From the NCBI GenBank assembly GCA_963828735.1, contig CAWHFW010000005.1, positions 128,001 to 192,000 on the forward strand: 64,000 nucleotides of DNA, read 5' to 3'. Positions within the stretch are counted from its first letter, which is position 1; every line of letters begins with the position of its first letter. Positions 31,841 through 45,695 of this stretch are shown piece after piece. The position numbers were made by a program, and so were the translations under genes. This DNA is from an uncultured Gemmatimonadales bacterium (lineage in GTDB: Bacteria > Gemmatimonadota > Gemmatimonadetes > Gemmatimonadales > GWC2-71-9). The notes under the pieces were generated by a model. The model ran no database searches, was not told the origin of the DNA, and saw only the letters and a program-made list of their open reading frames with translations.

Positions 31841-32480
31841 CGGGAAATGCTCCCGTCAGAAACGGGTTGGTCAGCCGCTCCACGCCGATCGTGGTGTCCG
31901 GGCCGTGCCCGCTGTGGACGACGGTCGAATCGGGGAGCGACAGGAACTGGGATTGGATGGTGCTCATCAGCGTCGCGTAGTCGCCGCCGGGGAGGTCGGT
32001 ACGACCGATCGAGCCATTGAACAGCACGTCGCCGCCGAACACGCGGTCGTGCCCGACGAAGCTCACGCTGCCCGGCGAATGGCCGGGCGTGTACCGCACG
32101 TCGAAGGCGAAGCGACCGACCCGCACCGCCGTGCCCGGCTCGAGGTCCACGTCGGGCGGGGGCGGTGGCTCCAGCTGCATGCCCACCCACGCGCCGAACT
32201 GAGGCAGGGCATCGTAGATCCCGCGGTCGAGCGGATGCAGGTGGATAGGAACGCCGGTGGCTTCCCGGATCGCGCCGACGCCCAGAATGTGGTCCACGTG
32301 CGCGTGCGTCAGCCAGATCGCCCGGAGATGCCAGGCGCGAGTATCGAGCTCGGCGAGAAACATCGCGGGCTCTTCACCCGGATCGATGATGACCGCCTCT
32401 CGGGTTTTGCGGTCGGCCACGAGATAGCAGTTTTCGGCGAACTGCCCGTTGGCAAGCGACACCACCTCCAGCTCAGACAC
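31833..32480 (-). CDS. MBL-fold metallo-hydrolase (glyoxalase II/YcbL-like)
   Basis: THAHVDH, TPGHSPG, GDVLF, SGHGPDTTIG. Confidence 0.93.
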   Translation of the reverse strand: MSELEVVSLANGQFAENCYLVADRKTREAVIIDPGEEPAMFLAELDTRAWHLRAIWLTHAHVDHILGVGAIREATGVPIHLHPLDRGIYDALPQFGAWVGMQLEPPPPPDVDLEPGTAVRVGRFAFDVRYTPGHSPGSVSFVGHDRVFGGDVLFNGSIGRTDLPGGDYATLMSTIQSQFLSLPDSTVVHSGHGPDTTIGVERLTNPFLTGAFPVG

Positions 32481-33438
32481 CGACCTGCGCCCCCACCGCG
32501 CCCGTCCGCCGGTCCTTGAGGAATTTCTCGACCGCGATCGCCGCCGTGGTGGCGTCGCCGACGGCGGTGGTGACCTGCCGGGTCAGCTGGACGCGGAGGT
32601 CACCCGCCGCGAACAGGCCGGGAATGGACGTCATCATGCGGTCGTCCGTGACCAGGTAGCCGCTAGCATCGTGGGTGACGTGCTGGGTCACCAGGCCGGA
32701 GTTGGGGCGGAAGCCGATGAACACGAAGCAGCCGGTCGCCCGGAGGGACTGGCGCTCGCCCGTGACGGTGTCTTCCGTCTCGATGGACTGCAGACCGGCC
32801 GGTCCGCCCTTGAGCTCGAGCACGCGCCGGTTCCAGATCACCTCGATCTTGGGATTCGCGAACAACCGCTCCTGCAGGATCCTGGACGCGCGGAATTCGT
32901 CGCGGCGGTGGATCACGTACACCTTGGCCGCGTAGCGCGTCAGATACTCGGCTTCCTCGACCGCCGCGTCGCCGCCGCCCACCACCGCGATCGTCTCGCC
33001 CTTGAAGAAGGCGCCGTCGCACACCGCGCAGTAGGACACGCCCCGACCCGCATACTCGAGCTCGCCGGGCACCTCGAGCTTGGTGGGCGTGCCGCCCGCC
33101 GTGAGAATCACAGCCGGGGCCTCATACACGGTGCCGTTCGTGGTGCTGACCTCGAAGATGCCGTCCTCGCGCCGGCTGATCGTCTCCACATTCTCCTGCC
33201 GGATGTCGGCGCCGAACACCTTGGCGTGAGCCGCCATCTTGTGCGCGAGCTCGCGGCCGAGGACGTGCTCGAAGCCCGGGTAGTCGTCGATCCATTCCGT
33301 ATTGTTGAGCTCGCCGCCGGGCAGGCCGCGCTCGAGCAGGACCGCCTTGAGCATGCCGCGCCCCGCGTACATGGCGGCACAGAGGCCCGCCGGGCCTCCG
33401 CCCACGATGATCAGCTCGAACTCCTCGGTACGACTCAT
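32473..33438 (-). CDS. trxB: Thioredoxin-disulfide reductase
   Basis: GGGPAG, GVSYCAVCDG, GGGDAA, HRRDEFRA, FAAGD. Confidence 0.95.
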   Translation of the reverse strand: MSRTEEFELIIVGGGPAGLCAAMYAGRGMLKAVLLERGLPGGELNNTEWIDDYPGFEHVLGRELAHKMAAHAKVFGADIRQENVETISRREDGIFEVSTTNGTVYEAPAVILTAGGTPTKLEVPGELEYAGRGVSYCAVCDGAFFKGETIAVVGGGDAAVEEAEYLTRYAAKVYVIHRRDEFRASRILQERLFANPKIEVIWNRRVLELKGGPAGLQSIETEDTVTGERQSLRATGCFVFIGFRPNSGLVTQHVTHDASGYLVTDDRMMTSIPGLFAAGDLRVQLTRQVTTAVGDATTAAIAVEKFLKDRRTGAVGAQVGV

Positions 33439-33599: not shown

Positions 33600-34376
33600 T
33601 TACGAATGGGCCGCCGAGGAGACCGGCGGCCCAAGGTGCAGCAGGCTGGCCGCGCCGTGGCAGGAGGAGATCGTCCCCACGAGCACGTCGGTGGGCTCCA
33701 CCGCAGCGCCGGCCCGCGCCACGACCGTGTCCCCCTCGAGCACGGTCGAGACGTCGAACATGCCCACCCCGTACACGCGGTGACGGCAGGTGAACAGGAC
33801 CGGCCCGGCGGTGGGGGTGTTTCGATTGAGCCGTCGAACGAGCTCCTCCATCGCCTCGGCCATCTCCCAGGTCCGCGGAGCGCGGATCACGGGACAGGTC
33901 GCCGGCTCGATGCAATGGGTGGGACACAGCCAATCGGCGAACGACACATAGCGCGTGCCGTCGGGCGCCCGCACGTCGTACGGCGTGCCGGGGCCCATGG
34001 CGACCGGGTGCGGCTCGACGACGCGCCCGGGCCAGCGCGCGCGTGCGCGCCGGACCAGCCAGTCGTACATCAGATGAGGCATGAGGGGCGACGGTACGAT
34101 GGCGTCCGGAGGGCCCGAGCGATCCACGGCCGCGGCGAGGTAGCGATCGAAGAACGCGCCCCACTCTTCGACGACGATGTCGATGCCGGGCGCGGCGCCG
34201 AGCTCGACCGCCGCCCTGCAGCGGGGATCACGGTCCACCACCAGCAGGCGCTTCCACTCCGCCGCGCCACGCTCGCGGGCCTTGAGAAGCTGGCCCGCGT
34301 AGAAGCGGCCGTAGCAGCCGCCCCCGACGATCACGACGTCGCCGAGCGCGACGCTATCGGATGAGACGGCCGCCAT
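33600..34376 (-). CDS. Hypothetical protein with Rossmann-like N-terminus and Cys/His-rich C-terminus
   Basis: VIVGGGCYG; CPTHCIEPATCP, CRH, SCHG. Confidence 0.7.
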   Translation of the reverse strand: MAAVSSDSVALGDVVIVGGGCYGRFYAGQLLKARERGAAEWKRLLVVDRDPRCRAAVELGAAPGIDIVVEEWGAFFDRYLAAAVDRSGPPDAIVPSPLMPHLMYDWLVRRARARWPGRVVEPHPVAMGPGTPYDVRAPDGTRYVSFADWLCPTHCIEPATCPVIRAPRTWEMAEAMEELVRRLNRNTPTAGPVLFTCRHRVYGVGMFDVSTVLEGDTVVARAGAAVEPTDVLVGTISSCHGAASLLHLGPPVSSAAHS

Positions 34377-35085
34377 CCACTACCAACACCTCCCCCGTCA
34401 CATAATCGCCGCCCTCGAGCAGGTAGAGCAATGCGGCGGTCGCATCGGCAGGTGTGCCCAGCCGTTCGAGCGGCGTCGTGCGCGCGAGGCGCTCGCGCTC
34501 GTCCGCGTCGTACTCCTCCGGCACCAGCACGGCGCCCGGCGCGATGGCGTTCACCGTGACCTCGGGGGCGAGCGCACGGGCGAGCACGCGCGTCAGCATC
34601 ACCACCCCGGCCTTGCTGACCGAATGCGCGGCGAAGCCGGGCCAGGCCTCGAGGCCGCTCAGATCCGCCAGGTTGACCACCTTGCCGCGAGCCGCCCGCA
34701 GGGCCGGCGCCGCGCCCTGGGTGCAGAAGAAGACCGACCGGAGGTTCAGGCTCAACACCGCATCGTACAGCGCGGGGGTCGTGTCCTCGAACGAGACCCG
34801 GTGCATCACCGCCGCCGAGTTGACGAGCACGTCGAGGCCGCCCAGCTCCGCCACCACGCGACGAGGGAGCTCGGCCGCGGCGGCCGCATCGGTGAGGTCC
34901 GCCGCGAAGCAAGCGGCACGACCGCCCGCGGCGGTGATCTCGTCGCGGAGCGCCGTCGCGCCTGCGCCCGAGCGGTGATGATGGATGGCCACGGTCATGC
35001 CGCGCGAGGCGAGGGCGCGTGCCATCGCCTGACCCAGCCGGCGACCGGCGCCGGTCACCAGCGCGATCCGGCCCGGAAGCTCCAT
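34354..35085 (-). CDS. SDR oxidoreductase, pteridine reductase/FolM-like
   Basis: TGAGRRLG, LVNSA, HSVSK in place of YxxxK, VNAIAPG. Confidence 0.8.
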   Translation of the reverse strand: MELPGRIALVTGAGRRLGQAMARALASRGMTVAIHHHRSGAGATALRDEITAAGGRAACFAADLTDAAAAAELPRRVVAELGGLDVLVNSAAVMHRVSFEDTTPALYDAVLSLNLRSVFFCTQGAAPALRAARGKVVNLADLSGLEAWPGFAAHSVSKAGVVMLTRVLARALAPEVTVNAIAPGAVLVPEEYDADERERLARTTPLERLGTPADATAALLYLLEGGDYVTGEVLVVDGGRLIR

Positions 35086-35816
35086 CAGCCGGCGGCGCGC
35101 GGAGCGATCGGCCGGATCTCCCCGGTGGGCGCGGAGGGACCGGACACCGCGAGCGCCAAGACGCCGTTCGTCAGGTCGTCCATCTCGACGTACGCCGCGC
35201 CTTCCCCCGCGGAGGCGACGTTGTCGCCGGTCCGGGCCATGCCGGGGGCGACGGCGTTGACGCGGATCTGCCGATCGGCCAGCTCGAGGGCCAGGCTGCG
35301 CGTGAAGCCCGCGACCGCCGCCTTGGCGGCGGAGTAGACGGCCATCGGGCTCTGCGGATCGAAGTAGGCGATGGACGCGAAGTTGATGATGCAGCCGCGC
35401 GTGGCGGTCAGCGCGGGTATGGCGGCCTGGGACACGAGCACCGCGGTCTTGAGATTGATCGCCAGCTCGCGGTCGAGGTCCTGCGCCGTGAGCTGCTCGA
35501 TCGGTCCGTAGGTGGTGAGCCCGCCCGCGACGTTCACCACCACGTCCAGCCGGCCGAAATGGCGGAGGGCGATCTCGACGGCGAGGGCCGCGAGGTCAGG
35601 CTGAGTCAGGTCGCCGGCGCAGGGCCTGGCGTCGACGCCAAGCGCCGCGAACTCGCGGACCCGCTCGGCCACGCCCACGGCATTGACGTCGCACGCCACG
35701 ATCCGGGCGCCAGCATGGCCGAACGCCAGCGCCACCGCGTTGCCGATCTGCCCCGGCCGGCCCACGCCGGTCACGAGCGCCACCTTGCCGCTGAAGTCGA
35801 ACGCCGGTGCCGTCAT
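35085..35816 (-). CDS. SDR family oxidoreductase
   Basis: TGVGRPGQIG, YSAAK, VNAVAPG. Confidence 0.88.
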   Translation of the reverse strand: MTAPAFDFSGKVALVTGVGRPGQIGNAVALAFGHAGARIVACDVNAVGVAERVREFAALGVDARPCAGDLTQPDLAALAVEIALRHFGRLDVVVNVAGGLTTYGPIEQLTAQDLDRELAINLKTAVLVSQAAIPALTATRGCIINFASIAYFDPQSPMAVYSAAKAAVAGFTRSLALELADRQIRVNAVAPGMARTGDNVASAGEGAAYVEMDDLTNGVLALAVSGPSAPTGEIRPIAPRAAG

Positions 35817-35819
35817 GTC

Positions 35820-36257
35820 TCACCTCAGTGCTGCGAGCACGATCTCCGCGCCGGGGGCACCCGCCTGGCTGTAGGCCACCCTCCCGTCCTCGTCGATCAC
35901 GACCACCGAGCGCGCGATGGACGCTCCATCGGGCCGGAGCGCGCCGTAGGCCCCGGCGATGGCGAGCCCAGGATCCGACAGGAGCGGAAACGGCAACCGG
36001 AGCCGAGCGGCGTAGCCCGCGTGACTCTCCGGGGACGCGGGGTTCACGCCGAAGGGATGAACCCGCTTGTGCTCGTAGAGGGGCAGGTCGTCGCGCACGG
36101 CGGACAGTTGCCGATTTCAGCCGGGCGTGTCGTTGCCCGGATAGAACGCCAGCAGCACCCGGTGACGGGCGAGCAGGTCGTGCAGCACGTATGTCCGCCC
36201 GTCCGACGCCTGCGCGGAGAATGCCGGCGCGATGGTGCCCACCGCGACGAGGCTCAC
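35820..36257 (-). CDS. Peroxiredoxin (AhpC/TSA, BCP-like) with in-frame TGA at the peroxidatic site; probable selenoprotein
   Basis: Continuous frame VSLVAVGTIAPAFS..LAFYPGNDTPG[TGA 36119-36117]NRQLSAVRD..FPLLSD..AYG..RSVVVIDEDG. Confidence 0.85.
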
Positions 36258-37105
36258 GAGACGACCGGTGCGGCGCGCCCGGCCCGCAGCTCTTCCAGGC
36301 GCTCCAGCCACTCGAGCGGCACGTCCTGCGACCCCAATGCGCCGTGGGTCTCGCCCGGCTCGGGATCGCCGTGCCAGTCGCTGCCGCCGGTGCGGAGGAG
36401 GCCGAGCTTCAGGGCGATGCCGGTGAGGCGCGACCGGAGATCGGCGTCGTGACTGGGATGCCGGACCTCGACCGCATCGAGACCCTCGCGCTTGAGCCGC
36501 TCGAGAAACGCCCGGGTGCCGCGCTCCTTGGGATGGGCGAGCGACACCATGCCGCGAACCGAGTGCACCACGTCGGCCACGTCGCGGAACCCGGGCAGGA
36601 TCTTGTCCACGAAGGCCGGGCGGCCGCGGCCGATGTAGCGGTCGAACGCGTCGGAGATGTCGATGGCGCTGCCCTGGCTGACGATCGCTCGGGCGACGTG
36701 GGGCCGGCCCACCGCCCCGCCCTTCGACTGGAGCAGCACGTCGTCGAACTCGAGATGCACGCCCAGATGCTGCAGGCGGCTCACCATCTCGCGGCCGCGC
36801 CGCACCCGGTCGGCGCGGCGCCGCTCCAGAAACGCCTCGAGCTCAAGGGATTCGGACGGCAGGAAGTAGCCGAGCACGTGCATCTCGCCCCAGGGCGCGG
36901 CGCAGCTGAACTCGCAGCCACCGACCACGCGGAGCCCCACGCGGTCGCCGGCAGCGGTGGCCGCGGCCACGCCCGCGACGGTATCGTGATCGGTGAGGGC
37001 CATGGCCGAAAGGCCCGCCGCGTGCGCCCGCCCCACCACGGCTTCCGGCGGAAGGCTTCCGTCGGACGCCGTGGAGTGCACGTGGAGATCGACCACGCCG
37101 GCCAC
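36254..37105 (-). CDS. PHP domain phosphoesterase (TrpH/YciV-like)
   Basis: DLHVHSTASDG, TDHD, GRPH, AHP, GGSDWHG. Confidence 0.92.
   Translation of the reverse strand: MAGVVDLHVHSTASDGSLPPEAVVGRAHAAGLSAMALTDHDTVAGVAAATAAGDRVGLRVVGGCEFSCAAPWGEMHVLGYFLPSESLELEAFLERRRADRVRRGREMVSRLQHLGVHLEFDDVLLQSKGGAVGRPHVARAIVSQGSAIDISDAFDRYIGRGRPAFVDKILPGFRDVADVVHSVRGMVSLAHPKERGTRAFLERLKREGLDAVEVRHPSHDADLRSRLTGIALKLGLLRTGGSDWHGDPEPGETHGALGSQDVPLEWLERLEELRAGRAAPVVS

Positions 37106-43159: not shown

Positions 43160-45695
<2,536 letters not shown>

Follow-up and report, generated by a model that had tools for sequence, protein, structure and literature searches.

A probable selenocysteine peroxiredoxin gene, recorded as two fragments, in an uncultured Gemmatimonadales bacterium

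Results

Organization of the locus

The window, i.e. the whole 64,000-nucleotide stretch of contig CAWHFW010000005.1 (assembly GCA_963828735.1) that was analysed, belongs to an uncultured Gemmatimonadales bacterium. The features considered here are listed below.

36254..37105, minus strand: PHP-family phosphoesterase gene, upstream of the peroxiredoxin gene in 80/80 loci (the best 80 of 340)
35820..36257, minus strand: putative selenocysteine (Sec) peroxiredoxin gene, BCP/PrxQ-like, 145 aa, predicted Sec at residue 47
36117..36140, minus strand: PxxxTxxU active-site motif (Pro40, Thr44, putative Sec47)
36117..36119, minus strand: codon 47, an in-frame TGA at the site of the peroxidatic residue, putative Sec codon
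36087..36105, minus strand: bacterial SECIS-like hairpin, +12 to +30 after the UGA
35910..35912, minus strand: Arg116
34354..35816, minus strand: two SDR oxidoreductase genes (35085-35816 and 34354-35085), an SDR gene being downstream in 76/80 loci (the best 80 of 340)
32473..33438, minus strand: trxB, thioredoxin reductase (TIGR01292, 353.6 bits, over cut-off), candidate upstream reductant

Two listed ORFs, 36117..36311 and 35820..36098, are the halves of one minus-strand frame of 145 codons, which in the ORF reading of the window runs from GTG 36257 to TGA 35822-35820 and is interrupted only by the TGA at 36119-36117 (codon 47), in the context FYPGNDTPG*NRQL. An earlier note, made from the sequence of the window, had described the two ORFs in this way and had placed the TGA at the peroxidatic Cys site of a protein with no other Cys; the PxxxTxxU alignment and the 145-aa translation, from which Cys is absent, bear this out. 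The GTG start shares 4 nt with the stop of the PHP gene (GTGA) and the next gene begins 4 bases past the peroxiredoxin stop, so that the full 145-codon frame fits the gap exactly. The Pfam AhpC-TSA domain (PF00578) is matched at 99.4 bits (cut-off 26) over residues 6-129, across the TGA.

The predicted structure of the protein (pLDDT 95.6) has Bcp1 (3drn) as its best fold match, with a TM score of 0.84 and an rmsd of 1.4 A. BCP/PrxQ proteins head the matches in NCBIfam, in PDB sequences and in the fold comparison, and AhpE follows closely. No NCBIfam cut-off was reached, the equivalogs NF006960 and NF053650 giving 57.5 vs 140 and 56.2 vs 260 bits, respectively. Judging from its best matches, the protein would work like a BCP; its filing in the BCP NCBIfam equivalogs is not supported. 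Pro40, Thr44, position 47 and Arg116 are invariant in 13/13 aligned orthologues. The active-site motif aligns with those of 5enu and 3drn. Arg116 is matched with an Arg in both structures and stands where peroxiredoxins have their conserved catalytic arginine.

Support for the TGA and its conservation

A 276-nt contig of run X9 covers 35992-36267 with 0 other letters, TGA included. The TGA is likewise covered by contigs of run X4 (647 nt, 1 other letter) and of the RNA run X15 (682 nt, 11 other letters), neither of which lists a difference at 36117-36119; run X2 gave short pieces only over the site. The TGA is thus supported, as the earlier note had suggested checking, at the level of contigs rather than reads; the window itself may derive from one of these runs, and the contig from the RNA library is not evidence of transcription. 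The runs holding the stretch are mostly soil or rhizosphere metagenomes.

A search of 61 genomes (the bacterium's own and 60 relatives, including the unpublished G003) gave 39 matches in 38 genomes at E 4.2e-33 or better, the next best match being at 1e-20. Exactly one TGA was present in each of the 39 close matches (30/30 orthologues and 9/9 more), always at codon 47, and in the 30 orthologues the 3' part was open for 98-100 codons. One genome, G036, has two TGA-bearing copies (G036:C37 and G036:C67). Codon 47 was TGA in 78 and TGC in 2 of the 80 genome_contigs loci, these being the best 80 of 340 relative-encoding stretches, a sample biased to near relatives and overlapping the 61-genome set. 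By their titles, 78 of these loci are assigned at the level of Gemmatimonadota or Gemmatimonadales, one (a 1.8-kb contig) to Acidimicrobiia and one to 'bacterium HR33'.

Of 201 genomes drawn evenly from the phylum, 58 carry the orthologue, and 53 of these have one TGA and 5 have no stop, all five with TGC; these counts include the unpublished G102, G194 and G217, and the picture is unchanged when unpublished genomes are omitted. Fifteen further TGA loci that were fetched all have the TGA at codon 47. The 139 loci reduce to 113 distinct contexts, 107 with TGA and 6 with TGC. Members of different families, with identities as low as 41%, share the TGA, and both halves of the protein are conserved in them. 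The TGC forms L176 and L177 lie at the same locus, with the PHP gene upstream and an SDR gene downstream, so the alternation of TGA and TGC that the earlier note had proposed looking for does occur, at the same codon and the same syntenic locus. Among the full-length database homologues listed, 119/120 have C at the site and 1/120 has R; such lists can contain only stop-free forms, and C was checked against DNA for genome loci only.

A SECIS-like hairpin downstream of the TGA

The conserved hairpin consists of the pairs 12-30, 13-29, 14-28, 15-25, 16-24 and 17-23, counted from the UGA, with a 2-nt bulge at +26/+27. Its loop, CGUGC (36099-36095), has G at position 2 followed by U, and databases wrongly start the C-terminal fragment at the GUG within this loop (36098). 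The Ser, Ala, Val and Arg codons at +5 to +8 show a synonymous diversity of 0 in 30 orthologues; in 45 further conserved codons of four- or sixfold degeneracy, the median is 0.56 and the lowest value 0.13. In the +12/+30 register, 99.4% of the cells of these orthologues are paired, and 0/500 shuffles scored as high. The +12/+30 pairing itself holds in 30/30 orthologues through a C-G/G-C swap (22 vs 8 sequences), a compensatory change that represents one evolutionary event (one clade, support 100), and four of the six pairs never vary.

Across the distinct contexts, the loop and a Watson-Crick 12-30 pair are kept in 106/107 TGA forms (86 C-G, 20 G-C), whereas none of the 6 TGC contexts keeps the loop and none keeps all six pairs. 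The sole divergent TGA form, L183, belongs to another class of the phylum and is 41% identical; its hairpin is of a different kind, with the loop AGUU. By these comparisons, the hairpin is under RNA-level selection only in TGA forms, and the disappearance of so position-specific an element from TGC forms points to SelB-dependent decoding.

The earlier note had proposed a SECIS-like hairpin after the TGA; such a hairpin exists, in a register other than the one proposed. The proposed gtc/gac register (+12 with +27, loop CGT) fails in its outer pair in 22/30 orthologues, and 87.2% of its cells are paired, a value equalled or exceeded by 462/500 shuffles. In this one sequence, energy favours that register (-6.0 vs -3.8 kcal/mol for the conserved register alone), and both expose the same G-U. 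Folding energy by itself did not pick out the SECIS: over four folding windows the hairpin was not stabler than shuffles (z from +0.70 to -1.63), and orthologues do not share one minimum free energy (MFE) structure.

The bacterial SECIS model given in PMC13188914 has a loop of 3-9 nt with G in the first two loop positions, at 16-37 nt from the UGA, and a stem of 4-16 bp with an MFE of at most -7.5. Compared with that description, the hairpin found here has a 5-nt loop with G second, 17 nt from the UGA, and 6 pairs. The 40-nt stretch folds at -11.8 kcal/mol, against just -3.8 for the isolated hairpin, and the N1-N2 loop pair, which the model treats as optional, is absent (C-C). In a literal search of the genome for the hairpin pattern after any TGA, all tested pairs were present in the peroxiredoxin gene only.

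Sec and Cys forms of the gene

Cys rows are scattered among Sec rows in the tree, with 13 changes by parsimony, 4 of them forced by well-supported branches, outgroups included. The tree was built with FastTree from 144 columns and holds 65 of the 115 genome rows, 16 database rows and 3 outgroups; 36 of its 81 inner branches are open, and neither the root nor the number of Sec/Cys switches is fixed by it. One form with TGC, L179, comes from a genome without Sec machinery and yet keeps 5/6 hairpin pairs, as a relic would. Repeated reversion from Sec to Cys is the likely reading of these comparisons.

Position +5 is Ser in 30/30 Sec forms, and a Cys is found near residue 119 in 17/30 of them. Among the 120 Cys homologues listed, 25 have a second Cys at +5 and 90 have no other Cys. 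A Cys codon at +5 would break pair 14-28, so that the hairpin and a +5 resolving Cys would probably be in conflict in this lineage.

Selenocysteine machinery and frameshifts in the assembly

The Sec machinery that the earlier note had named as a check was found in the genome: selA, selB and a selD of the Cys type are over cut-off, and a tRNA-Sec(UCA) lies at C2:68777-68874 (65.2 bits). SelD is of the Cys type in this genome (L020, G000) but has a TGA at the same site in G040 (L075). In the genus, selA was matched in 34/36 genomes. It is present in 50/53 TGA carriers, the other three having selB together with tRNA-Sec or selD. G217 (unpublished) and G220 lack a selA match and have selB and tRNA-Sec. 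G040 has the TGA gene, selB and selD with its own in-frame TGA; selA and tRNA-Sec were not found in its assembly of 240 contigs. Of the five TGC carriers, three have selA, and in G153 and G148 selA, selB and tRNA-Sec were all not found. As selA occurs in 162/201 genomes of the phylum anyway, and in every genome of several families, its co-occurrence with the TGA is supportive but weak.

In this assembly, selA (C2:304867-306146) lies in three frames and selB (C2:157206-159039) in two. A comparison with three relatives places two net +1 shifts in selA, at about C2:305620 and C2:305900; the change of frame in selB falls at about C2:158110. Contig C2 and the region around C5:58-61 kb are where frameshifts are concentrated. 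A membrane pyrophosphatase gene in the window (43288-44933, minus strand) occupies two or more ORFs; frameshifts thus set in right at the border of the region that the earlier note had described as clean.

Other candidate Sec genes

A family scan found in-frame TGAs at known Sec sites in two further genes of the genome, one for a formate dehydrogenase alpha subunit (C5:2563615, minus strand) and one SelW-like (C5:2254951, plus strand). Their hairpin loops are GGUCU and (A)GUU, respectively. The other Sec genes of the genome use different hairpins, and there is no shared SECIS at the sequence level. Dicodon-model mining for TGA read-through was noisy, giving 132 candidates that were mostly gene junctions. 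Five other candidates were examined: the two genes above were borne out by the family scan, and C5:1025697, C3:260071 and C5:2343894 were set aside, being gene ends or shadow frames as judged by eye.

A second peroxiredoxin-like gene of the same genome (G000, C5:2110131, minus strand; L221, with relatives L095-L097) has a TGA at the catalytic site, in the motif FFFKARTSG*TVQM, which lacks the usual Pro. It has an N-terminal extension and a different conserved downstream hairpin, and is likely to represent a second Sec peroxiredoxin lineage. In a third lineage, L093 (G041) and L094 (G053) are canonical BCP-type genes in which a TGA occupies the peroxidatic position; both have a strong hairpin (about -20 kcal/mol), and one keeps the +5 Cys.

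Discussion

Interpretation of the TGA

On the comparative evidence, 36257..35820 is very probably an intact selenocysteine peroxiredoxin gene of the BCP/PrxQ type, and the 'stop' in its active site almost certainly codes for selenocysteine. The recoding of UGA as Sec that the earlier note had put forward is backed by the alternation of TGA and TGC, by the Sec machinery and by the selection on the hairpin in TGA forms. Public records (NCBI, JGI, ENA and Logan) carry the TGA form as two fragments, and all ten fragments looked up are separate protein records, e.g. MBA3344373.1 (47 aa) and MBA3344374.1 (94 aa). This, the indel errors in the assembly and the in-frame GTG at 36098 would fit a pseudogene, a sequencing error or a true split into proteins of 46 and 92 aa. 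We consider this extremely improbable: the same TGA recurs across families with both halves conserved, the X9 contig matches exactly, a halt at codon 47 would remove the catalytic residue itself, and GTG 36098 is the loop of the SECIS-like hairpin. Just as little probability is given to a suppressor or reassigned tRNA that would insert Cys or Trp at the UGA. Homologues do have Cys at the site and UGA-decoding Cys tRNAs have been reported in some bacteria, but the only UCA tRNA in the inventory, which is the list given by ARAGORN at default settings, is of the Sec type, tRNA-Trp(CCA) and tRNA-Cys(GCA) being ordinary. TGA is moreover the normal stop of the peroxiredoxin gene in most orthologues, and the position-specific hairpin is gone in TGC forms. 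Insertion of Cys, which the earlier note had kept as an alternative, is unlikely on the evidence of the tRNA list.

A further explanation would accept the selenoprotein family as real and have the Sec system of this strain in decay, the gene giving only a 46-aa stub. Both key genes, selA and selB, are hit by the frameshifts described above, and these breaks, if real, would leave the strain unable to insert Sec. However, 14 of 233 scored orthologous ORFs (about 6%, with selB itself and probable shadow-frame duplicates among the 14) are likewise split across frames in the assembly, 11 of them on C2, the contig of selA and selB. The three selA pieces are without internal stops, and in selB the identity is 66-77% before as well as after the shift. 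Assembly indels are therefore the likelier cause of the breaks. The tRNA-Sec, selD, the formate dehydrogenase gene, the SelW-like gene and the hairpin are all intact, and selA was matched in most genomes of the genus, as given above. Decay is accordingly improbable, though less so than the two preceding explanations, and an intact Sec peroxiredoxin gene is the reading followed below.

Relation to known peroxiredoxins

Sec peroxiredoxins with TxxU have long been listed, and the kind of enzyme is already known. They appear as a bacterial selenoprotein family under PF00578 in PMC13188914 and as COG1225 Bcp in PMC9312934; 12 such genes are given in PMC1794560, and 91 in 78 organisms in the 2016 survey PMC5029168. 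Like this family, the gene described here has the PF00578 domain spanning the UGA, the UGA at the peroxidatic position of PxxxTxxU, a single predicted Sec, a bSECIS-type hairpin and Cys orthologues in relatives (107 TGA vs 6 TGC contexts; C in 119/120 database proteins listed). Its host has all four of selA, selB, selC and selD, the first two being frameshifted here and intact in most relatives. It differs from the listed Sec peroxiredoxins in forming a distinct orthologous group in Gemmatimonadota with the motif YPGN[DN]TPG-U-NRQLS, this copy being without any Cys. The peroxiredoxin entries in PMC1794560 are Cys-to-Sec conversions only, whereas here Cys forms are scattered among Sec forms.

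With the BCP/PrxQ proteins (Sulfolobus Bcp1, 3drn; Burkholderia 5enu) it shares sequence similarity (E 4e-26), a length of about 145-150 aa and the active-site Pro, Thr and Arg. In contrast to these, Sec would replace the peroxidatic Cys, and Ser stands at +5, the place of the resolving Cys in many BCPs; with no resolving Cys in the chain, it is not an atypical 2-Cys PrxQ. Like the 1-Cys peroxiredoxin AhpE (1xvw, 1xxu; E 2e-20, TM 0.84), it has a single redox residue and no resolving Cys, but in AhpE that residue is Cys, and the PDB title links the enzyme to mycothiol. PrxU of Eubacterium acidaminophilum is the experimentally studied precedent of a Sec peroxiredoxin. The host of PrxU is a strict anaerobe. 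The PrxU model NF040737 is 233 positions long, and our protein scores 33.5 bits against it, below its cut-off of 270. A Cys BCP paralogue is present in the genome at C5:1396972 and a separate AhpE-like paralogue, so labelled from its motif, at C5:196245.

Proposed mechanism

According to the established SelB mechanism, SelB-GTP with Sec-tRNA(UCA) would bind the loop 17 nt past the UGA and insert Sec47. In keeping with the chemistry of peroxiredoxins, Sec47 would then act as a selenolate, held in place by Pro40, Thr44 and Arg116, that reduces H2O2 or organic hydroperoxides and becomes a selenenic acid. As there is no Cys in the chain, an outside thiol would be needed to resolve the oxidised Sec47, in a cycle of the 1-Cys type. 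The least certain step is the identity of this thiol, for which thioredoxin fed by the neighbouring TrxB is most likely, or else a small-molecule thiol, and we hold this assignment with only modest confidence. When selenium is short, translation would halt at codon 47 and the ordinary Cys BCP of the genome would take over.

The earlier note had located the gene a few genes upstream of trxB, and trxB indeed starts at 33438, three genes downstream of it. In 18/20 relatives, trxB is on the same strand, 0.5-3 kb downstream of the peroxiredoxin gene, and in 2 it follows directly. This synteny suggests a thioredoxin-dependent recycling of the peroxiredoxin. Between the SDR genes and trxB lies the gene of a conserved 258-aa protein (33600-34376, minus strand) with several Cys/His motifs and no Pfam or NCBIfam family match; it is at the same place in 11/20 relatives.

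Selenium use in the Gemmatimonadota

The listings of the literature searches showed no paper on Sec in Gemmatimonadota or on this peroxiredoxin lineage, although subscription papers and most supplements, which were outside their scope, could hold one. In the five supplementary files of PMC5029168, a search turned up one genome of the phylum, negative for all selenium traits. The phylum, whose members are mostly soil bacteria, is without an earlier record as a selenium user in the surveys compared.

Our results point to a phylum whose use of Sec has been overlooked and some of whose members respire oxygen (two coxA genes are over cut-off in this genome). A wider reading, which we put forward tentatively and as the less probable outcome, is that the Gemmatimonadota possess a widespread, unannotated antioxidant selenoproteome (selA in 162/201 genomes, at least three Sec peroxiredoxin lineages), that in the lineage described here the SECIS stem took over the codon of the usual resolving Cys (+5) and left a Cys-free 1-Sec peroxiredoxin, and that Cys reversion occurred repeatedly and left SECIS relics. 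If this were true, the Cys-free enzyme would have to return to the reduced state by a route of its own: the neighbouring thioredoxin system might reduce it directly, or a selenenylamide might form, as it does in glutathione peroxidases. An antioxidant selenoproteome of this kind would also run against the statement, in the 2026 review PMC13188914, that aerobic bacteria rarely retain selenoproteins.

For annotation, the correction of a gene that is split in two in public databases is well supported. As the hairpin is present in TGA forms and missing from TGC forms, it would offer a short SECIS for which nature supplies the control, and a reporter could test it directly.
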